A DNA stretch of 64,000 bases from the NCBI GenBank assembly GCA_965224025.1, contig OZ245033.1, positions 4,128,001 to 4,192,000 of the forward strand. Direction: 5' to 3'. Below, one piece after another: positions 2,870 through 35,400 of this stretch. The position numbers were made by a program, and so were the translations under genes. This DNA comes from Candidatus Multivorans sp. (GTDB lineage Bacteria > Acidobacteriota > Thermoanaerobaculia > Multivoradales > Multivoraceae). The stretch's first letter is position 1. Each line of letters starts with the position of its first letter. The notes below the pieces were generated by a model. It ran no database searches and was not told the origin of the DNA. It saw nothing but the letters and a program-made list of their open reading frames with translations.

Positions 2870-5434
2870 CTAGAAGGAACCTCCGAAGCCGTAGGTCAGC
2901 CGCGAGTACCAGAACGCGCCGTTGAAGCCCCACGGCGTCCGTTCGCTGTACAGTTCGCCGACGCTCAACGCGAACGAGTTCTCCTCGGGGTACGCGTCGA
3001 GCACGTTCGTGCCGCCGAACACCCAACGCAGACCGTCGCGCAGCCTGAAGCCAATCTCCAGGTCGAGCGTGTTCTCGCCGGGGTAGCTCTCGTTGTTGTC
3101 CCGGTCGAACCAGCGATCGAAGTAGTTCAGGCGAGCCAGATAACGCACCCGGTCGCTGGCCGAGCGGTGCTTCGCGGTGACGCTGTACCGGCTCTCCGGC
3201 AGCGCCTGCTCGAGATCCCGGATCCGGCGCGGGCCGAACGTGACCGCGTTGGAGCGGACGACCTCCGTTTGGGTCAGATTGGCCAGCGCCGCGAAGCTGG
3301 TGCGGCCGCCCATCGACTCCGGCGTCACCGTGAGCACCAGGTCGGCGCCCACCGACTCCGTGTCGAAGTCGTTGGCGAAGAACCGGAAGTTCCTCAGGTT
3401 CGCGGCGCTTGTCACCCCCTCGGCGACCAGGGTGGCCGCCTCGTCCGGCGTCAACTGGAAGTTCTGAGTAACGGCGATCCGATCCTCCACGTCGATGCGG
3501 AAGACATCGAAGGTCATTGCGAACGGTCCGTTCTCGACCACCGCGCCGACCGCGAAGTTGAGCGAGGTCTCCGGTTCCAGAGGCTCGCCGCCCCTCAGCC
3601 TGGCCACCGCGGAAGTGGACGGAATGGTGCCGTTGTTGACCAGGTCCTGAACGCTCGTGTCGAACTGCGTCTGGACGTTGAACGCGTTCTGCTGCCCCGG
3701 CGTCGGCGCCCGAAAGCCACTGCTCAGACTGCTGCGCAACGCCATCCGCTCCGTCACCTGATAGCGGCCCGCGATCTTGCTGTTCATCGTGGTGCCGAAG
3801 TCGTCGAAGTTCTCGAACCGGACCGCGGCGCCCATCGCCCAGCGGCCGTCCGGGCCGTTGATCTCCACGTCGCCGTAGGCCGCGTAGTTCGAGCGGCCCC
3901 ACTTGCCGGCCGCGATATTGCTGAAGCCGGGAAAGCCGTTCGACCCGGAGCTGAAACCCTGGCTGGCCAGCGGACCGATCCGGTACGACTCGGGCTGGCC
4001 CGTGCCGATCTCGAACTCCTCATCCCTCCACTCCAACCCGCCGGCCACGTCGACGCGCTCCGACACCGAGTAGGTCAGGTCGTAGTTGAGGTTCGTCTCC
4101 CTCTGGGTGTAGGTCCCGAGCGCGAAACTGGTCGGCGTGTCCGGACCGAGCGACGCGTTCACCGTGTTGCTGATAAAGTGGTCGACGGAGTTCTCTCCCG
4201 TGCTGACGCTCAGATCCCAACCGATGCCGCCGGATGTGGCCCCGCGGAGACCGGCCACGATGCCCATGTCCTCGTTGTCGCCGCCGAAGTTCGGCGTGAA
4301 GCCGCCGGGGAAGAGCTCCTGGTAGGAGAAGCAGTTCGGATCGTCGATCACGCGGCGAAGCCCGATCGGATCCGGCACATGGTTGGTCACGGCGACGGTC
4401 GGGCAGCCGGCGGAGCCGTCGAGCACGCCGTCCCGGGCGTCGAGCAGATCGCCGACCAGCAGCGTGCTGCCGCCGTCGTTGCTGAACACGCCGCCGCGGG
4501 TGTTCGGATTGCGGAAGAAGAAGCCGCCGTTCACCGTCTTGCTGGCGTAGTTCGCGTGGCCGTAGAACTGGCGACCGCTGGTCTCGAACAGGTGACCGAA
4601 GTTCAGGAACAGCTTCATGTCGTCCGAGACCTCCGGCGAACCCCAGATCTGCGCCTTCGGCTGACGGACGTGCGTGTTGCCGGCGGCGATCAGGTTCGCC
4701 GCGTCCCGGCGCTGGATCGACCGGTCCGTCGGATCCGTGCTTCCATACTCCACGCTGAGGTTGAAGAAGCCGTTCCCGCCCAGCGGCAGACCGAGGTTCG
4801 CGGCGGCCGTGAACAGGTCGCCGTCGCCCTCGCCGTACGAACCGCTGCGAATCTCGACGGAACCGCCCGAACTCGCGTCCTTGAGCAGGAAGTTCATCAC
4901 GCCGGCGATCGCGTCGGATCCGTACTGCGCCGATGCGCCGTCGCGGAGCACCTCGACCTGGCGCAGCGCGATGGCCGGGATGACAGCCAGGTCCGGTCCC
5001 TGGGCGCCGATCGAAACCGCGTCTCCGTGCCAGTGAATCACCGCGGCGCGGTGCCTGCGCTTGCCGTTGACCAGCACCAGGGTGTGGTCGGGCGCCAGGT
5101 TGCGGAGGTAGGCCGGCCGCACGATCGACGACGCGTCGCTTATCGGCTGCATGCTCACGTTGAAGGAGGGCGCGAGGTTCCGCACCAGATTCGCCACGTC
5201 CGTGTCGCCCTGGGTCAGGAATTCCTCACCGCTAAGCACGTCCACGGGCACCATGGACTCGGCGACCGAACGGCCCTCGGTCCGGCTACCGACGACGACA
5301 ATTTCCTCGCCGAAGGAAGCCCCAGCCACGGTCTGATCCTCTTCGGACGCCGAATCCTCTTGGGCCGCGCCTGGGGCGACCGCAAAGAGCAGGACCAATA
5401 CGTAGATCGAGCGCACGAACTTGTCCCATTGCAT
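2870..5434 (-). CDS. TonB-dependent outer-membrane receptor (paralog 1)
   Basis: Signal peptide from MQWDKF, TonB box EEIVVVG, plug motifs LVLVNGKRRH and VEVLRDGASAQYGSDAIAGV, C-terminal Phe; GAGG SD before ATG 5434. Confidence 0.92.
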   Translation of the reverse strand: MQWDKFVRSIYVLVLLFAVAPGAAQEDSASEEDQTVAGASFGEEIVVVGSRTEGRSVAESMVPVDVLSGEEFLTQGDTDVANLVRNLAPSFNVSMQPISDASSIVRPAYLRNLAPDHTLVLVNGKRRHRAAVIHWHGDAVSIGAQGPDLAVIPAIALRQVEVLRDGASAQYGSDAIAGVMNFLLKDASSGGSVEIRSGSYGEGDGDLFTAAANLGLPLGGNGFFNLSVEYGSTDPTDRSIQRRDAANLIAAGNTHVRQPKAQIWGSPEVSDDMKLFLNFGHLFETSGRQFYGHANYASKTVNGGFFFRNPNTRGGVFSNDGGSTLLVGDLLDARDGVLDGSAGCPTVAVTNHVPDPIGLRRVIDDPNCFSYQELFPGGFTPNFGGDNEDMGIVAGLRGATSGGIGWDLSVSTGENSVDHFISNTVNASLGPDTPTSFALGTYTQRETNLNYDLTYSVSERVDVAGGLEWRDEEFEIGTGQPESYRIGPLASQGFSSGSNGFPGFSNIAAGKWGRSNYAAYGDVEINGPDGRWAMGAAVRFENFDDFGTTMNSKIAGRYQVTERMALRSSLSSGFRAPTPGQQNAFNVQTQFDTSVQDLVNNGTIPSTSAVARLRGGEPLEPETSLNFAVGAVVENGPFAMTFDVFRIDVEDRIAVTQNFQLTPDEAATLVAEGVTSAANLRNFRFFANDFDTESVGADLVLTVTPESMGGRTSFAALANLTQTEVVRSNAVTFGPRRIRDLEQALPESRYSVTAKHRSASDRVRYLARLNYFDRWFDRDNNESYPGENTLDLEIGFRLRDGLRWVFGGTNVLDAYPEENSFALSVGELYSERTPWGFNGAFWYSRLTYGFGGSF

Positions 5435-5600
5435 CAGGCAGTTTCCTCGTATCTGTTGACGGTGATGATCAGGGGCCTGCGATCCTCCTGTCTGTTGCCG
5501 GCCAGACGGCAGCAGCAGGAGGGCGCGCATCTCGCCACCCGTAGAGTCCGCGTAGCCTACACGAGCCGGATACACTCGGCAACAACTTTAGCGGTCAAGC

Positions 5601-5749
5601 CAGAACCATTCCAAAGTCCGGCGCTTCGCGCCGGATGCGGGCGAGACGCCCGCGTTCCCAGACTCGGAGCTATCGCGGCTCCGGTCCAACGATCCGGGAG
5701 TCGTTTCCGCACCTCCGGCCTCGGAACGGCGGACTTTGGAATGGTCCTG
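5601..5749. mobile_element. 149-bp MITE with 20-bp TIRs and 10-11 bp target-site duplication
   Basis: TIRs CAGAACCATTCCAAAGTCCG / CGGACTTTGGAATGGTCCTG (19/20); flanking direct repeat AGCGGTCAAG at 5590-5599 and 5750-5759; internal REP-like hairpin. Confidence 0.8.
5631..5661. repeat. REP-like palindrome CCGGATGCGGGCGAGACGCCCGCG
   Basis: Near-identical copy at 43641-43665; related units at 35303-35333 and 43711-43739. Confidence 0.75.
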
Positions 5750-5834
5750 AGCGGTCAAGACGACCTTGGACGCGCGCCAGATGCCCTGCCTCGATGTGCT
5801 CTTTCGCGAACGGTCGACCCGAACCTGAACCCAT

Positions 5835-5879
5835 GGGAGTATCCACAGCGGTGGGCCGCTGCGCTGTCGCGCAGGGAAC
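5835..5879 (+). repeat. 45-bp dispersed repeat (GGGAGTATCCACAGCGG...GCTGCGCTGTCGCGCAGGGAAC), copy 1
   Basis: Other copies at 33478-33519 (+) and 35345-35389 (-). Confidence 0.8.
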
Positions 5880-5944
5880 ATGTGCGTTCGGGTGTCGGGC
5901 CGCAGCGATTTCACCCACTTGCGGCAGGACATTTCATCCCTGCT

Positions 5945-6043
5945 GCTCCACTCTCGCTGGGTGCGCGGGCCTTCTGGCCCGCTGCCGCCGCGGGCGGCCA
6001 GGAGAACGCGCCGGCCGGAGGCCGGCGCCGCTCTGGTGGGAGC
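5945..6043 (+). repeat. Cloverleaf structured repeat, copy 1
   Basis: Core CTGGGTGCGCGGGYCTTCTGRCCCG shared with 35160-35280 and 63734-63840; partial inverted copy at 6097-6127. Confidence 0.75.
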
Positions 6044-6216
6044 GCCCGCTATCGAAGAACAGCTCGTGCGCGCCGCTTCGCGGCGGCGCGCTTGATGCGG
6101 GCCAGAAGGCCCGCGCCGCGCACCCAGAGATACGTCGACGATGCACCGTGTCACTCTACGCAGTTGCGGGGCAGCGGCAAGCCCAAGGTGCGGCCCTGAC
6201 CGACCCGGTGAACCTC

Positions 6217-6334
6217 TTGTTCCATGCAAGTATGGCCCGGACCGTGATCGGCGTTCTGACGCTGGCGGCGCGGCTCTTGCCGCGACCCCGTATGCAAGAG
6301 TAACGTTTCCGCTGCGGTCTCTGTCCAGCGCGAC
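6217..6334 (+). ncRNA. Orphan IS110 right-end / bridge-RNA donor-loop fragment
   Basis: 6217-6230 identical to IS110 right end 35120-35133; 6229-6334 aligns ungapped to 33623-33728 (94/106 by hand count). Confidence 0.7.
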
Positions 6335-6359
6335 CGTTTGAATCGTACAGGAGTGCCTC

Positions 6360-9077
6360 ATGAAAAGACTTGAACCCGGCCTTTCCATCCTGCTGCCCCT
6401 CGTTTTCGTCCTGCTACCGCTCTGCTTGGGCGCGCCGCTTCTGGCGCAGGAAGCTGAGAGTCAGGACGAAGGCGAACAGGCTGAAGAAACGCCCGAGTTC
6501 GGCGAAACGATCGTCGTCGTCGGCACCCGCACCGAGGGCCGCACCGTTACCCAGTCACCGGTCGCGGTCGACGTGATTCCCGCGACCGAGTTGATGAGTC
6601 AGGGCGACAACGACCTGATCAACCGGCTACGGACCGTCGTCCCCTCCTACAACGTCGGGACCCAGCCCATCAGCGACGCGGCGACGCTCGTCCGGCCCGT
6701 CAATCTCCGCGGTCTGGCTCCGGACCACACCCTGATCCTCGTCAATGGCAAGCGCCGCCATCGCGCCGCGGTCATCGCCTGGCTCGGCAACGGCATCTCG
6801 GACGGCGCCCAGGGTCCCGACGTCTCCGTCATCCCATCCATCGCGCTGAGGCAAGTCGAGGTGCTGCGTGACGGCGCTTCGGCGCAGTACGGCTCCGACG
6901 CGATCGCCGGCGTGATCAACTTCCAGCTCAAGGACGCGAGTTCCGGCGGCAGCATCGAGATCCGCTCGGGTCAGTTCCAGGACAGCAACCCCGGTTCCGA
7001 CGGCGGCTTCGGCGGCCAGTACACGTTCGCCGGCGACAAGGGCATCTCGTACGCCGTCTCGGCCAACCTCGGCATGCCGATGGGCGAGAACGGCTTCTTC
7101 AACCTGAGCATGGAGTACGGCGCCGCCGATCCGACCAGCCGCAGCGTGCAGTTCACAAACGCACAGAGAGCCTTCGACGCCGGCAGCTCACGAATTCGAA
7201 CCCCCGCGCAGGTCTGGGGTTCGCCCCTGGTCGAGGACGACATCAAGCTGTTCGCCAACTTCGGCAGCCTGTTCTCGAACGGCACTCAGTTCTACGGCCA
7301 CGCCAACTACGCCACGCGCACGACGACCGGCGGCTTCTACTTCCGTAACCCGTTCGGGAGTAACGCGAGAACCGGCGTCTTCAGCCCCGGGGGGGCGGAC
7401 CAGGGCAACTTCCTCCTCGTCGGAGACCGGGAATGGGCGCGAACCGGCGTGTCGCGGGCCGGCGGCTGCCCTGCAATTCCGGTCATCGACTACGCCCCCG
7501 ACCCTGCGGCGCTGGCGGCGGTCGAAGCGGACCCGAACTGCTTTACGCTCTACAACCGCTTCCCCGGAGGCTTCACGCCCCAGTTCGGCGGCGACCTGAC
7601 GGACTCGTCGATCGTCGCCGGCCTCCGCGGCTATCTCGACAGCGGCATGACGTGGGACATCAGCGTCAACGTCGGCAACAGCGAGGTCGACCAGTTCATC
7701 TACAACACGGTGAACGCCTCGCTCGGCTACGACACGCCAACCTCGTTCAGGCCGGGCATCTACGAACAGACCGACACGAACGTCAACTTCGACATCACCT
7801 ACCCGGTGCGTGACAACGTGAGCCTCGCCGCCGGCGTGGAGTGGCGGAACGAGGAGTTCCGGATCGGCGCCGGCGACCCGGCTTCGTGGGAGATCGGTCC
7901 CTACGCCGCCCAAGGTTTCAGCTCCGGTTCCAACGGCTTCAACGGCTACCGCGCCGATGTCACGGCCGGCACATGGGACCGCGCCAACGTCGCGGTCTAC
8001 GGCGATGTCGAGTTCGAAGATCCGGACGAGATGTGGACTTTGACCACGGCGCTCCGCGTGGAGGACTTCGACGGCTTCGGGAACACGATCAACGCCAAGG
8101 TCTCCGGCCGCCGGGTCGTGTCCGATGCTGTCTCGCTGCGCGCCTCCGTCAGCACGGGTTTCCGCGCGCCGACGCCCGGCCAGCAGAACGCATTCAACGT
8201 GACCACGGCATTCGACCCCGAGACGGGCGGGCTGTCGAATAGCGGCACCGTTCCCTCGATCTCGCAGCCGGCGGCTCTGAGGGGCGGCGAGGCTCTGCAG
8301 CCCGAGGAGGCGGTGAACTTCGCCGCCGGCCTGGTGGTCGGCAAGGGCGCGTTCACGTTCACCGCCGACATCTTCCACATCGACATGGACGACCGGATCG
8401 CATTGTCCGAGACCTTCCGGCAGTGCGCCATCCTCAGGGAGCCGGAACCGGGCTGCGTGACCGACGCCGAAATTGAGACCCTGCTCGCGGGCGGCTTCGT
8501 CGAAGCGAGGAACCTGAAGAACTTCCGGTTCTTCGTCAACGACTTCGCCACCTCAACCCAGGGTCTCGACCTGGTCGGCACCTGGGCGCCGCCGGCGCTC
8601 GGCGGCGACACGGCGTTCAGCCTCGTGTTCAACTACACCGACACGGAGGTCACGGAGTTCAATCCCGCTACAGTCGGCCCCTTCCGCATCGCCACCATCG
8701 AACGCGGACTGCCGGAGACCCGCTGGAACATCGCGATGAACCACAGCGCCGATCGCTGGAGCCTGCTCACGCGCCTGAACTGGTACGACGGCTGGTGGGA
8801 CAGCGAGGATGCGCAGAACCTCCTCGGCAGAAGCAACGCAAGGATGTTCCCCGACTACAGCGGTGAGTTCCTGCTCGACGTCGAACTCGGCATCCCGCTG
8901 CCGAACGACACGGCGATCACCATCGGCGTGCAGAACCTGCTGAACACCTATCCGGACGACAATCCCGGCGCCTATTCCGGCGGTGTCGGCAACCAGTACG
9001 GGCAGTTCTCGCCGTCCGGCTTCAACGGCGCCTACTACTACGTCCGATTCAACTACGCCTGGGGTTCTAGCTTCTAG
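6360..9077 (+). CDS. TonB-dependent outer-membrane receptor (paralog 2)
   Basis: Signal peptide, TonB box ETIVVVG, same plug motifs as paralog 1, C-terminal Phe; AGGAG SD. Confidence 0.93.
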   Translation: MKRLEPGLSILLPLVFVLLPLCLGAPLLAQEAESQDEGEQAEETPEFGETIVVVGTRTEGRTVTQSPVAVDVIPATELMSQGDNDLINRLRTVVPSYNVGTQPISDAATLVRPVNLRGLAPDHTLILVNGKRRHRAAVIAWLGNGISDGAQGPDVSVIPSIALRQVEVLRDGASAQYGSDAIAGVINFQLKDASSGGSIEIRSGQFQDSNPGSDGGFGGQYTFAGDKGISYAVSANLGMPMGENGFFNLSMEYGAADPTSRSVQFTNAQRAFDAGSSRIRTPAQVWGSPLVEDDIKLFANFGSLFSNGTQFYGHANYATRTTTGGFYFRNPFGSNARTGVFSPGGADQGNFLLVGDREWARTGVSRAGGCPAIPVIDYAPDPAALAAVEADPNCFTLYNRFPGGFTPQFGGDLTDSSIVAGLRGYLDSGMTWDISVNVGNSEVDQFIYNTVNASLGYDTPTSFRPGIYEQTDTNVNFDITYPVRDNVSLAAGVEWRNEEFRIGAGDPASWEIGPYAAQGFSSGSNGFNGYRADVTAGTWDRANVAVYGDVEFEDPDEMWTLTTALRVEDFDGFGNTINAKVSGRRVVSDAVSLRASVSTGFRAPTPGQQNAFNVTTAFDPETGGLSNSGTVPSISQPAALRGGEALQPEEAVNFAAGLVVGKGAFTFTADIFHIDMDDRIALSETFRQCAILREPEPGCVTDAEIETLLAGGFVEARNLKNFRFFVNDFATSTQGLDLVGTWAPPALGGDTAFSLVFNYTDTEVTEFNPATVGPFRIATIERGLPETRWNIAMNHSADRWSLLTRLNWYDGWWDSEDAQNLLGRSNARMFPDYSGEFLLDVELGIPLPNDTAITIGVQNLLNTYPDDNPGAYSGGVGNQYGQFSPSGFNGAYYYVRFNYAWGSSF

Positions 9078-31855: not shown

Positions 31856-33478
31856 ATGATTCCCATCCCGGACCTTCTCAACCGGGCGCCCTTCCTCGGC
31901 ATCGACGAGAAGGCTCTGTCGGACCTGCTGGGTCTCGCCGTTCTCGGCCGCGAGGTCGGCACCGAGTTCCATGACCTGATGGCGGAAGCCGAGACGCCGG
32001 AGGCGGCCTGGCGGCCCGAGTTCTTCGAACAGGATCTGTTCATCGACCGCCTGATCGCGGAGAGCTTCGAACTGCGAATCGACGGCGTTCACTACCCGAT
32101 CAACGAGCGCTTCCTGCACCGCGCCCTGACCGCCACGCCGACCGACCTGCAGACGATCAGCTTCCGCCAGGGGATCCTGCGCGAACTGGACGAGGACGAG
32201 GAAGTCCTCGCCTCGGCCGAACGCCTCTACCGCGAGCTGTTCGGTCTGCTCTCGCTTCACCGCATGCCCCGCTACCACAGCGTCCTCGATACGGCGTCCC
32301 ACAACCTGGACATCCTCAGGCAGAGCCGTCTCGTCATCGACCTGATGCACGATCGCTTCGAGACGGTCCGCTCGGGACTCCGACGACTGTACGAAGGGGC
32401 AGTCGCGATCCGCGCGACCGAGGAGTACGCGACCCTTGCCGCCCTTCTCGACTACGAGAGCAAGCTCGCCGAACTGAACCTCGACATCACTCTCGGCGGC
32501 GACGGGCGCATCCGCGGCCTCGAGGTGCGCTCCCTCGAGGAGTGCCGTGACAATCCGTTCTGGACCCGGCCGATCAAGCGGCTCTGGAGCCGCGCTCGGC
32601 TCGGCCTCGGCGGCTACTCGATGGGCAACCGGGAACTCCTGAACCGGGTCGTCGAGCGGGTCTACGTCTCTCTGTCGCCCGCCCTGATACCCCTGATCCA
32701 GATGCTCGGCCAACTGGAGCTCTACCTCGCCTCCCGCGCTCTCCGTGACCGCGCCGCCGAGCGCGGTCTCTCCATGTGCATTCCCGAGTTCCGGCCGGAA
32801 CATGATGGCGACTCCGCAATCGAGTGTGAACACCTGTTCAACCCGCTGCTGCTGACCCAGGAGCTGGCGCCCGTGCCGTGTACGGTGAGAACGGTCGGTA
32901 GCGTGCCGATCACCGTGGTCACCGGTCCGAACTCGGGAGGCAAGACGCGGCTGATCCAGGCCATCGCGCTGGCTCAACTGCTCGGTCAGTCCGGCCTCTA
33001 CGCGCCCTGCAGCCGCGCCCGGATGCGCGTCCGGCAGGGGCTGTTCGTGTCCCTGATCGAGCGCGAAAGCGCGGATCAGGTCGAGGGCCGCCTGGGGCGC
33101 GAACTCGTGCGCATCCGCACCCTCTTCGAAGAGATGGAGCATGGCTCGATGGTGGTCCTGGACGAGCTGTGCTCGGGCACCAACCCTTCGGAGGGAATCG
33201 AGGTCTTCACTCTCGTGCTCCAGCTCCTCCGGCGTGTCCAGCCCGTGGCCTACGTAACCACCCACTTCCTCGACCACGCCCGCGCCCTCCAGCAGAACCA
33301 CATGGAACTGGGCCTCGAGTTCCTCCAGGTACAGCTCGACGACGAGCGCCGGAGCACCTATCAGTTCAAGGGCGGCGTCGCCCGCACGTCCCTGGCGGCG
33401 CTCACCGCGGAGCGGCTCGGCGTCACCTTCGAGAACCTATCGGCAGCTGTCGACGAGCGCCGGGCGAAGGCCGGCTAG
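31856..33478 (+). CDS. Truncated MutS-family ATPase (domain V with helical N-terminus)
   Basis: TGPNSGGKT, VLDELCSGT, VTTHF; no mismatch-recognition or Smr domain evident. Confidence 0.85.
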   Translation: MIPIPDLLNRAPFLGIDEKALSDLLGLAVLGREVGTEFHDLMAEAETPEAAWRPEFFEQDLFIDRLIAESFELRIDGVHYPINERFLHRALTATPTDLQTISFRQGILRELDEDEEVLASAERLYRELFGLLSLHRMPRYHSVLDTASHNLDILRQSRLVIDLMHDRFETVRSGLRRLYEGAVAIRATEEYATLAALLDYESKLAELNLDITLGGDGRIRGLEVRSLEECRDNPFWTRPIKRLWSRARLGLGGYSMGNRELLNRVVERVYVSLSPALIPLIQMLGQLELYLASRALRDRAAERGLSMCIPEFRPEHDGDSAIECEHLFNPLLLTQELAPVPCTVRTVGSVPITVVTGPNSGGKTRLIQAIALAQLLGQSGLYAPCSRARMRVRQGLFVSLIERESADQVEGRLGRELVRIRTLFEEMEHGSMVVLDELCSGTNPSEGIEVFTLVLQLLRRVQPVAYVTTHFLDHARALQQNHMELGLEFLQVQLDDERRSTYQFKGGVARTSLAALTAERLGVTFENLSAAVDERRAKAG

Positions 33479-33519
33479 GAGTGTCCGCAGCGTTGTCGCT
33501 GCGCTGTCGCGCAGGGAAC
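33478..33519 (+). repeat. 45-bp dispersed repeat, copy 2
   Basis: Matches 5835-5879 and the reverse complement of 35345-35389. Confidence 0.75.
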
Positions 33520-33570
33520 AGGCAGCGAGTAGCCAACGTTACAGCGGCGTCGTGGGTTCATAGAGTTGGC

Positions 33571-33726
33571 CGCGCTGGGCAGCGAGGCCGCGCAGGCACT
33601 GGTGTGTTGGCGCCCGACTAGGAGTTTGGCCCGGACCGTGATCGGCGCTCTGACGCTGGCGGCGCGGCTTGTGTCGCGACCCCGTATGCAAGATTGAGCT
33701 TTTCGCCGCGGTCTCTGCCCAGCGCG
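33571..33726 (+). ncRNA. IS110 bridge-RNA-like non-coding RNA
   Basis: -10-like TAGAGT at 33561-33566; closing helix 33571-33592 with 33707-33726; two internal-loop domains; second loop matches IS ends. Confidence 0.72.
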
Positions 33727-33759
33727 ACGATTGGATTCCACATCTACGGGAGGCAGGGG

Positions 33760-35079
33760 ATGGCAAAGCGGAAGGCGGAGCGTCTGGAAGTCGTTCACCC
33801 GGATTGCGCCGGTGTGGACGTAGGCAAGCGCAAGCACTACGTGGCGGTGGCCCCGTCGCGTTTCGAGCGGCCGGTGCGCAATTTCTCGTCGTTCACGGAG
33901 GACCTCGAGGCGATGGCCTCGTGGCTTCAGGAGTGCGGCGTGCGTGAGGTGGCGCTGGAGTCGACGGGGGTGTACTGGATTCCGGTGTTCGAGGTGCTGG
34001 ACCGGGCGGGGTTCGAGGTGCATCTGGTGAATCCTCGGGCGACCAAGCAGGTGAGTGGCCGCAAGAGTGACGTTCTGGACTGCCAGTGGATCCGGCAGTT
34101 GATGAGCTACGGGCTCCTGCGCGGTGCGTTTCGCGCGCCGGACGAGTTGTGTCCGCTGCGTTCGTACACGCGGCAGCGCGCCCAGTTGGTCCGCGACCGC
34201 AGCCGCGCGGTGCAGCACATCCAGAAGGCTCTGGTGCAGATGAACGTGCAGTTGGACAACGTGCTGAGCGACATCATGGGCAAGACCGGCCAGTTGATCG
34301 TGCGCGCGATCGTCGCCGGCGAGCGCGACGGCGCGGCGCTGGCCCGTCACCGGGACGGTCGCTGCAAGGCTGGTCCGGCTGTGATCGCGGCGAGTTTGCA
34401 AGGCAACTGGCGAGACGAGCACCTGTTCGCTCTGGGCCAGGCGCTGGCCCGCTACGACATGCTGCAAGGCCAGATCGAGATGTGCGAGAAGCGCATCGAC
34501 GCCGAGCTCGACGGCCTGGCCCAAGACGGCGTCGAGGACGCGCCGCCGCCCGGTTCGAAGGCGCGCGAGCGCGCCCTGCGGAAGCGGCTGCATCGCATGC
34601 TCGGCGTGGACCTGGTCGCCATTCCGACGGTCGGCGTCGAAACCGCGCTGACCTTCGCCGCTGAGATCGGCCCGGACCTGTCCCGGTTTCCCTCGCAGGG
34701 CAACTTCTGCTCGTGGCTGTGTCTGGCTCCACCGACCAACATCAGCGGCGACAAACGGCTGAACGGCCCTCCCGTGAAGCAGACCAACCGGGTCGGCCAG
34801 ACGCTGCGCCAAGCCGCCACCACAGCCCGCAACAGCAAGACCGCCATCGGAGCCTCTCACCGCCGGCGTCTCCAGCACATGGAGAAGGCGAAGGCCATCA
34901 AGGCCACCGCTCATCAACTCGGCCGACTGATCTACGCCATGCTGACCCACGGCGAAGAGTACGTCGAGCGCGACCTCGCCGAAATGGAGGCCGTCCGACG
35001 CGAACGACAAATCAGAAACCTGCAGCGTCAGGCCCGCCGCCTGAATCTGGCTCTCGTGCCGACCGAACATGCCGCCTGA
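33760..35079 (+). CDS. IS110-family transposase/recombinase
   Basis: GVDVGK, LESTG, KSDVLDC (DEDD RuvC), IPTVG, LCLAP...ISG Tnp serine motif; GGAGG SD. Confidence 0.95.
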   Translation: MAKRKAERLEVVHPDCAGVDVGKRKHYVAVAPSRFERPVRNFSSFTEDLEAMASWLQECGVREVALESTGVYWIPVFEVLDRAGFEVHLVNPRATKQVSGRKSDVLDCQWIRQLMSYGLLRGAFRAPDELCPLRSYTRQRAQLVRDRSRAVQHIQKALVQMNVQLDNVLSDIMGKTGQLIVRAIVAGERDGAALARHRDGRCKAGPAVIAASLQGNWRDEHLFALGQALARYDMLQGQIEMCEKRIDAELDGLAQDGVEDAPPPGSKARERALRKRLHRMLGVDLVAIPTVGVETALTFAAEIGPDLSRFPSQGNFCSWLCLAPPTNISGDKRLNGPPVKQTNRVGQTLRQAATTARNSKTAIGASHRRRLQHMEKAKAIKATAHQLGRLIYAMLTHGEEYVERDLAEMEAVRRERQIRNLQRQARRLNLALVPTEHAA

Positions 35080-35159
35080 ATCGCGCAACCTGCGCTGCCA
35101 ACAAGGAACCCCTACCCGTTTGTTCCATGCAAGACTGCGCTGCGTCCGCGCAGCGCTGA

Positions 35160-35280
35160 CTTGCATGGAACTGGTCGCCGACTGGGTGCGCGGGTCTTCT
35201 GACCCGCTGCCGCCGGAGGCGGCCAGAGATACGTGCCGGCCGTCAGGCCGGCTCCGCTTTGGCGGCCAGTTCCATACAAG
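35160..35280 (+). repeat. Cloverleaf structured repeat, copy 2
   Basis: Terminal IR cttgcatggaactgg...ccagttccatacaag enclosing three hairpins. Confidence 0.75.
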
Positions 35281-35344
35281 CTTGCGCGACAGAACGATCT
35301 GACCTGGGAACCCGTGTGGCGCGCCCGCATCCGGACGCCGCGTC

Positions 35345-35389
35345 GTTCCCTGCGCGACAGCGCAGCGGACCGCCGCTGTGGATACTCCC
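35345..35389 (-). repeat. 45-bp dispersed repeat, copy 3 (inverted)
   Basis: Reverse complement is nearly identical to 5835-5879. Confidence 0.8.
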
Positions 35390-35400
35390 AGGCGCCGGCT

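Follow-up and report, generated by a model that had tools for sequence, protein, structure and literature searches.

In a 64,000-nucleotide (nt) stretch of the genome of Candidatus Multivorans sp. (contig OZ245033.1, forward-strand positions 4,128,001 to 4,192,000; hereafter, the window), two divergently oriented paralogous genes for TonB-dependent receptors (2873-5575 on the minus strand and 6360-9077 on the plus strand) bound an intergenic region that holds an insert composed of remnants of insertion sequences (IS) of the IS110 family. The insert spans 514 bp (5840-6353, with one copy of an AG dinucleotide counted) and ends 6 nt before the ATG of the plus-strand receptor. The subject of the present analysis is its right part, 6217-6353, where the right end (RE) of an IS110 element is fused to one half of the gene for a bridge RNA, the two-loop RNA that matches the target and donor sites of such elements. 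The downstream receptor gene is intact and encodes a protein of 905 amino acids (aa) with a signal-peptide-like N-terminus and matches to the Pfam families Plug (1.9e-16) and TonB_dep_Rec_b-barrel (1.5e-26). The paralogue also contains the Plug and barrel domains, and the same divergent pair is found in relatives; the intergenic region is 784 bp long here as compared with 284 bp in one of these relatives (L007).

Comparison with relatives delineates the insert. The 5' part of the receptor gene finds a match in all 24 same-genus genomes (81-88% DNA identity), and in each of the seven orthologous loci that were fetched from this genus, the native upstream sequence reads without interruption ...GGTCGAC...GAACCCATAGGAG (with variants) followed by a 6-nt spacer and the start codon. 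In the window, the left part of this native sequence (5793-5839, plus strand), which aligns directly upstream of the orthologous start codons (58/78 with L006 and 51/78 with L004) and the counterpart of which in the relatives ends ...CCCATAGGAG, stops at 5839 (...CCCATGGGAG), and the spacer that leads from the ribosome-binding site to the start codon (6354-6359; in the orthologues, TGTCTC or a similar sequence right after ...AGGAG) resumes at 6354. Because native upstream sequence is present on both sides and is continuous in the orthologous loci, 5840-6353 is an insertion. The left native part terminates with ATGGG and the core dinucleotide AG (5838-5839); the insertion site, AT(A/G)GG+AG, is the Shine-Dalgarno sequence of the receptor and resembles CTAGG+AG, the left target of the type A element described below. 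The insert is absent from all seven orthologous loci, contrary to what would be expected of a conserved cis-regulatory leader, and among the receptor-search matches listed (with 114 weaker ones beyond), none from outside this genome covers the fragment. By its flanks and gene order, the receptor is a native, syntenic gene.

Two IS110-family elements of this genome, here denoted types A and B, are the parents against which the fragment has to be compared. Type A is 1.66 kb long and is present in 14 full copies with at least 99.2% identity and defined ends (whole-genome BLAST). The reference copy in the window (33475-35133, plus strand) consists of the left target half with the core, CTAGGAG (33475-33481), and the element itself (33482-35133), which includes a bridge-RNA gene at about 33568-33730 with guides matching the flanks, the transposase gene (33760-35079), the product of which contains the Pfam domains DEDD_Tnp_IS110 and Transposase_20, and the RE end (35120-35133). 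In all 14 copies, unique left DNA runs up to CTAGG+AG, and the right end reads ...CCATGCA+AG (TTGTTCCATGCAAG); AG is the dinucleotide common to both junctions and hence the core, so that the 14-mer represents the true RE. The right flanks resemble nYTGCGCGGC, with TGCGC at positions +3 to +7 in 11 of the 14 copies. Type B is disrupted just past its RNA gene by another element of at least 1.5 kb, with four identical copies, the transposase of which we take to be of the IS1595 type from its N-terminus. The remaining part of type B is located 1.2 Mb away, beside another copy of the interrupting element, and comprises an RE, a ribosome-binding site and a transposase of 439 aa, which is intact and 85% identical to that of type A. 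The split, between the RNA gene and the ribosome-binding site, is seen at C1:909278-910778 and C1:2133297-2131797, with ATTTGAAT on both sides, similar to a target duplication; the arrangement suggests that the type B halves were separated by rearrangement between copies of the interrupting element. In type A (33482-35133) and in type B before its disruption, the bridge-RNA gene adjoins a DEDD/Tnp recombinase gene, the neighborhood characteristic of IS110 bridge RNAs, whereas no recombinase gene adjoins the fragment, and the TonB receptor gene comes next.

The fragment joins parts of such elements. Its first 14 nt (6217-6230) are letter for letter the type A RE at 35120-35133, as a first-pass annotation, made by a model from the bare sequence, had noticed, and the ungapped similarity of about 89% to the left-end RNA over 106 nt that was reported there is reproduced by BLAST (88.7%; 6229-6334 against 33623-33728). 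The closer parent is the left end (LE) of type B (C1:909158-909277), with 96.7% identity over 120 nt (6224-6343), and the type B homology extends through CGTACAGGAG to 6353, taking in the transposase ribosome-binding site (6343-6353) when compared with the sequence before the type B transposase (C1:2130588); the part of the type B LE present here, its 3' half, occupies 6231-6353 on the plus strand. Homology to type A breaks at the core AG at 6229-6230, which in the intact element closes the guide segment CTAGGAG (33619-33625); the breakpoint is thus located inside the target guide, as claimed previously, and corresponds to IS nt 148/149 in two loci from other genomes (L069 and L070, see below). 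The receptor ATG (6360) lies 25 nt past the end of the type A homology, again in agreement with the earlier observation. From left to right, the insert comprises an LE-type start after ATGGG+AG, an element resembling a miniature inverted-repeat transposable element (MITE) with a canonical RE, the core AG and the 3' half of the type B bridge-RNA gene, and it is limited on the right by the AG (6352-6353, the right core) of the transposase ribosome-binding site ACAGGAG (6347-6353).

The MITE-like part, element X (5840-6230, plus strand), combines an LE-type start (5840-5879; 87-96% identity to the LE starts of types A and B), repetitive extragenic palindrome (REP)-like repeats (at about 5954-6040 and 6060-6140, with dozens of copies) and an RE-type tail (6143-6230) that ends with TTGTTCCATGCAAG. 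It has the attributes of a non-autonomous IS110 derivative, namely, ends of the LE and RE types, each next to AG, and no transposase; the whole insert, unlike element X, terminates in a ribosome-binding site rather than an RE. The 88 nt ahead of the junction, that is, the tail, are found at two more loci (94% identity to C1:4648084 and 81% to C1:2917282), which argues against a chance junction, and 5831-6033 is 95% identical to a sequence at C1:5031515. Only such parts recur: neither 5840-6230 nor 5840-6353 has a second copy as a unit in the genome. Within the window, no Rfam 15 family scored above threshold, and the open frames at 5591-6388 (minus strand) and 5635-6300 (plus strand) have no Pfam match.

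The architecture of the RNA was derived from 59 loci with relatives of the transposase in Pseudomonadales-type metagenome-assembled genomes, from which 22 LEs were aligned and 16 non-redundant RNA regions were folded with RNAalifold. In the consensus, a 14-pair basal stem, P1, encloses both loops; the target loop consists of a closing stem, an internal loop and an inner hairpin, P3, and the donor loop consists of a stem, P4, an internal loop and an inner hairpin, P6. Compensatory changes are found in 14 of the 50 predicted pairs and affect P1, P3, P4 and P6. In the fragment, the alignment and the consensus fold place the 3' strand of the target-loop closing stem at 6234-6238, P4 at 6239-6246 with 6313-6320, P6 at 6264-6290 and the 3' strand of P1 at 6323-6335 (all on the plus strand). 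The fragment thus retains the donor loop on both sides, with P4, P6 and the RE-matching guide TATGCAAG (6291-6298), as well as the 3' strand of P1, but it has no 5' strand of P1, no target loop and none of the DNA that preceded the RNA gene; of the two loops of an IS110 bridge RNA, the donor-loop half alone is present. Genome-wide nhmmer searches with profiles for the two halves gave 15 hits for the target-loop half and 16 for the donor-loop half, the extra hit being the fragment (6225-6337; 97.9 bits against 103.5-104.1 bits for the intact copies), which is the sole solo donor-loop half in the genome and is single-copy. The inferred loss of the target loop is thereby borne out.

In this clade, the guide segments can be read off the alignment. 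The left flank plus AG is repeated in the segment 3' of P3, which comes in the types CTAGG, CCAGG, ATGCA, ATGAA, ATGCG and ATTGT; in a comparison of 14 orthologues made by eye in the alignment, it matches the flank exactly in 12 (A_win, B_909, L009, L011, L013, L014, L028, L029, L031, L033, L034 and L037) and with one mismatch in two (L024 and L050). The RE end plus AG is likewise repeated in the segment 3' of P6, which tracks the RE end in five of five variant types (GCG, GAA, GGA, GAA and GCG), and on its 5' side the target loop shows complementarity to the right flank (in type A, to the TGCGC mentioned above). The loop segments therefore covary with the flanks and ends, as they do in IS110 bridge RNAs, and because the segment before the internal AG is identical to the left target half plus the core, the guide-coding DNA itself copies half of a target. 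The first-pass annotation had described both donor guides of the fragment as unchanged. For TATGCAAG, which is intact and, covarying with the RE end, a real guide, this holds, but TGACGCTGGC is a putative guide that is near-invariant while the LE starts vary, and across the aligned orthologues no consistent rule for a second donor guide, directed at the LE start, emerged on the 5' side of the donor loop. The stem in which gctc/gagc was reported to have become cgtt/aacg has some support, in that its best helix is 92% paired with eight pair types, but the register shifts between sequences.

The parent elements resemble IS621 in the domains of the recombinase, in the upstream two-loop RNA matching target and donor, and in the core at both ends (PMC11208160; here and below, statements on published systems refer to the portions of the cited sources that were consulted). 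According to the rules described for IS621, the left bottom strand is paired with the 5' side of a loop and the right top strand with the 3' side; the present clade obeys these rules only after flipping of the DNA, which changes the core AG to CT, and on the transposase strand it is the mirror image of IS621. The alignments indicate that in this clade the module of recombinase and RNA is inverted relative to the polarity of the crossover site (33568-33730; L009-L050). Also in contrast to IS621 (PMC11208160), a long basal stem encloses both loops here, and the fragment contains the donor loop only, without an adjacent recombinase gene.

The second line of evidence is the recurrence of the breakpoint. 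A scan of 185,579 species genomes for an RE end followed by AG and the 3' part of an LE (TTTGGCCCGG...) retrieved this junction from three other genomes (L068, L069 and L070), at IS position 148/149, so that the recurrent fusions of right end, AG and donor loop for which the first-pass annotation had proposed a search do exist. In L069, a complete IS is followed by a second copy that begins at IS nt 149 and has kept the transposase; in L070, a mini element of about 88 nt is lodged between nt 148 and 149 in the guide DNA, and the 5' part of the LE is still there; in L068 (OZ253469.1, 1546-1850), an RE, AG, the donor-loop half and an RE-like sequence succeed each other without a transposase, with RE-like sequence on both sides. 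The partners in L069 and L070 have nothing but AG in common, and hence microhomology cannot explain these two junctions. A broader scan without the requirement for an RE produced 50 hits, of which five chance matches in unrelated DNA (L097, L098, L104, L106 and L108) were dropped before counting. Among the remaining 45 copies of the family 3' LE, none of which is from this genome, the target-loop context is intact in 40 and disrupted in five: the three RE-AG junctions, L075, in which foreign DNA ending GTCTAGG+AG is joined to the 3' LE, and L101, which is cut about 15 nt further upstream. Thus, four of the five disrupted left ends break at this AG or within 9 nt of it, and counting the window, the breakpoint is located exactly here in four events (the window, L068, L069 and L070) and at or within 9 nt in a fifth (L075). 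A scan of metagenomes for the junction pattern gave 0 hits. The possibility that L068 represents an amplified mobile donor-loop element was considered and rejected, this locus being single-copy in its genome.

Taken with the anatomy of the insert, these observations make it probable that 6217-6353 is a relic, within a 514-bp composite of IS110-family debris in the native leader of the receptor gene, that was left by the recombinase acting at guide-coding DNA. They support, as far as sequence can, the putative occurrence of recombination at guide-coding DNA that mimics a target, an exchange of the type termed half-match. Half-match recombination has been described for IS621 (bioRxiv 10.64898/2026.08.31.748434), and one-armed donor matches have been described at internal boundaries of expanded IS110 loci (bioRxiv 10.64898/2026.08.14.744561); according to these two studies, recombination with one matched arm explains off-target insertions, partial modules and tandem growth. 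In the present case, the matched arms would be the RE end and the guide-coding DNA, whereas those studies dealt with IS621 in vitro or with large surveys of expanded loci. In full-text literature searches that covered articles and not their supplements, no description was found of guide-coding DNA as a recurrent natural substrate or of insertion into it. The first-pass annotation had proposed self-targeting at the target-like sequence in a bridge-RNA gene, and this part of its interpretation gains support from the identity of the guide DNA with the target half plus core and from the recurrent junction; the consequences that it drew for the function of the fragment fare less well, as detailed below.

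In the history that we propose, either an element or X and type B in tandem would have inserted into the AGGAG of the receptor, which is similar to the CTAGG+AG target of the clade. By one route, X would have inserted at this AGGAG, and type B would then have landed behind the RE of X, its preferred target; by the other, type B would have come first and X would have landed in its guide DNA, with the same left junction as the outcome. With the donor loop matching the right-end junction and the target loop matching the guide-coding DNA, the recombinase would have exchanged strands between these two sites, and this half-match exchange would have eliminated 148 nt from the 5' side of the left end, target loop included; alternatively, a deletion between the ATGCAAGT repeats of 8 nt or between two LE starts might have taken this part away. 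A second deletion, from ACAGG+AG in the transposase ribosome-binding site to the AG of the RE junction of type B itself, would have removed the transposase. The first insertion would have replaced the AGGAG of the receptor by ...GCAAG, and the second deletion would have rebuilt an AGGAG 6 nt before the ATG; selection for translation of the receptor, given the rebuilt site at its native spacing, can explain the survival of this deletion. That the recombinase also made the second deletion is a guess; ACAGGAG agrees with the type A guide in five of seven positions. Under this scenario, the location of the receptor gene in place of the transposase would be accounted for by the landing of the element in the AGGAG of the receptor and by the termination of the later deletion at the AGGAG of the transposase.

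Several points weigh against this reconstruction. Neither junction in this genome is directly tied to a recombinase; because the 8 nt ATGCAAGT are common to the type B guide and the RE, the left junction could be due to slippage, and a homologous deletion between two 40-nt LE starts is possible as well. The right junction is a single case, with no analogous junction found elsewhere and a guide match of 5/7; nor was an intermediate encountered in which a complete type B copy occupies this site. In addition, the fragment is well preserved, with four differences from type B in 120 nt (6232, 6302, 6313 and 6336). None of these breaks a consensus pair; one turns a G-C pair into G-U, and one turns a U-G wobble into U-A in a stem proposed by the first-pass annotation. 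By a rough estimate, about one third of random sets of four changes would look alike, and the four non-breaking changes neither support nor exclude constraint. The fragment may well belong, as a passively transcribed piece, to the leader of the receptor mRNA, given that transcription must cross the insert or start in it if the intact receptor gene is to be expressed. Finally, the reads that support the junction possibly come from the same sample as the assembly.

The same relic might have been produced without any recombinase: after type B had inserted next to X, or X into type B, replication slippage or homologous recombination between short direct repeats would have eliminated the 5' part of the left end, and a rare illegitimate deletion of the transposase would have persisted thanks to the restored ribosome-binding site of the receptor. 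Indeed, the type B guide AATGCAAG is identical to the RE end, which places an 8-nt direct repeat at the exact breakpoints, the similarity between the LE start of X and that of type B is about 88% over 40-49 nt, and tandem junctions of RE, AG and LE start are common in this genome (7 of the 52 CCAT[GA]CAAG sites). We nevertheless regard this course of events as unlikely because the same breakpoint was used in L069 and L070, where the partners share AG alone, because the clustering of disrupted left ends at or near this AG (4/5) comes from a scan that was independent of the RE, and because the two sides of the right junction have only AG, plus a shifted TGC, in common.

A different proposition is that the fragment yields a functioning donor-loop-only RNA, in or from the receptor leader, that would bind type A or B recombinase dimers and serve as a decoy, a split bridge RNA or a recombinase-responsive leader. 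The donor-loop stems and the RE-matching guide are intact, with a profile score close to those of the intact copies, none of the four differences from type B breaks a pair, and the intact receptor gene implies that the leader is probably transcribed. Furthermore, an engineered orthologue functions with a bridge RNA that is split into target-loop and donor-loop RNAs, and complexes with two donor loops exist (bioRxiv 10.1101/2025.05.14.653916); a donor-loop-only RNA of 87 nt is present in purified CazIS110-1 complexes (bioRxiv 10.1101/2025.10.25.684509), that is, it occurs in vivo, but it is inactive alone when assayed for excision or integration. The fragment, however, lacks the 5' strand of P1 and all of the DNA that precedes the RNA gene. 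Folded as a single sequence, it is no more stable than shuffled versions (z = 0.24; the intact type A RNA is only mildly more stable than its shuffles, with z = -1.38), and the stems of the family do not appear in this fold. An A/T-rich box that is conserved in the orthologues 6-8 nt before P1 may be the -10 element of the RNA, although a simple promoter scan does not call it, and the fragment would then have lost its promoter; simple promoter and terminator scans found nothing in 5500-6500 or 33440-33800. The fragment is single-copy and absent from the seven orthologous loci, and L068, the other transposase-less example, is likewise single-copy. For these reasons, a functional RNA appears improbable, as do the decoy, split bridge RNA and domesticated leader put forward by the first-pass annotation.

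In a more specific form of this idea, the donor-loop RNA in the receptor leader would be bound by the recombinase encoded by the 15 resident transposase genes and would represent a natural split or decoy bridge RNA, with guide reprogramming through recombination of guide DNA as a related phenomenon; we rate this as a long shot. If true, such an RNA could titrate the recombinase or favor excision between two donors (half-match), linking transposition to receptor expression, and guides reprogrammed to their own right end (CTAGG to ATGCA) would found lineages that insert in tandem behind resident copies.

It is very improbable that the junction is an assembly chimera between repeats. The region is dense in multi-copy repeats, and the assembly is of the metagenome type, but separately built short-read contigs from runs X1 and X2 span 6149-6262 and 6272-6537, and thereby bridge both junctions, with 0 differences and a depth of about 45, like that of unique neighbors, and homologous junctions are found in three other assemblies. 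Runs X1 and X2 represent one sample, which may be the source of the window's own assembly; runs X3 and X4, from other studies, contained repeats or the receptor of a relative, not the junction. The notion, also raised by the first-pass annotation, that an IS captured or mobilized the receptor as cargo in place of its transposase, for which the position of the receptor ATG, about where that of the transposase would be, could be adduced, can be set aside as extremely improbable, given that native upstream sequence flanks the insert on either side, that relatives share the synteny and the divergent paralogue, that every same-genus genome yields a receptor match, and that there is neither an RE after the receptor as part of a unit nor a second copy of the arrangement.

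Among characterized elements of the IS110 family, ISPpu9 of Pseudomonas putida (Pseudomonadales) offers parallels to the debris at this locus: it has AG at both ends and repeat-type targets, and partial modules are known, including solo non-coding pieces of the ssr9 kind flanked by element-end sequences (PMC12288879). ISPpu9 also forms several kinds of circles from different combinations of ends (PMC12288879). The MITE-like ssr9 modules differ from the fragment in that ssr9 is a separate small RNA, dispensable for transposition, and not half of a bridge RNA (PMC12288879), and a junction within guide-coding DNA does not appear in the portion of that article covered here. The published bridge RNAs with split or single loops (10.1101/2025.05.14.653916; 10.1101/2025.10.25.684509) were processed or engineered from intact genes, whereas here the target loop was deleted from the DNA.

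As an object, the fragment is an ordinary remnant of insertion sequences. Its value is that of natural evidence that DNA coding for the target guide is itself a half-site for the recombinase and that natural recombination recurs there. The recurrent breakpoint fits the recently proposed half-match recombination and suggests a route by which derivatives lacking the target loop or the transposase originate. It also entails a warning, in that engineered cassettes for the expression of bridge RNAs carry a sequence that may attract donors. In addition, the locus illustrates how an element can land in a ribosome-binding site and how a later deletion can rebuild that site.

The family guides show a further regularity. 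The type B guide being identical to the RE end is in accord with the location of type B, L009, L028, L031, L033 and L034, all of which lie directly behind RE-like sequence; the target guides of these six (for type B, the LE at C1:909017-909277) equal the RE end of their own family (ATGCA, ATGAA or ATGCG, plus AG). Guides equal to the RE of the element itself, combined with a position behind an RE, imply tandem insertion behind resident copies. L028 and L029 have near-identical LEs but differ in the guide, ATGCA against CTAGG, with the left flank changed in step, and look like a natural retargeting pair, to judge from their alignment.

The 52 CCAT[GA]CAAG sites in the genome include the 14 type A REs and the single type B RE; 15 sites end a mini element of about 59 nt, and the seven tandem sites are followed directly by an LE-type or mini-element start. 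The mini element consists of a hairpin resembling the LE start and an RE end (for example, C1:3516481, 5044216 and 1070848; genome G000), with two copies located directly behind another RE, and is probably a MITE moved in trans by bridge recombinases. The type A target in the window, CTAGGAG (33475-33481), contains both TAG, apparently the stop codon of the upstream frame, and AGGAG; gene ends and starts may be favored as landing sites. Right after the type A copy (35134-35295 and 35345-35390), there is an inverted RE-like arm, CTTGCATGGAAC, along with REP-like repeats that also occur at 5957-6039. The same stretch (35134-35390) contains a degenerate RE-like site (GTTCCATACAAG and CTTGCGCGAC) and an inverted relic of an LE start, which points to a cluster of old insertion sites.

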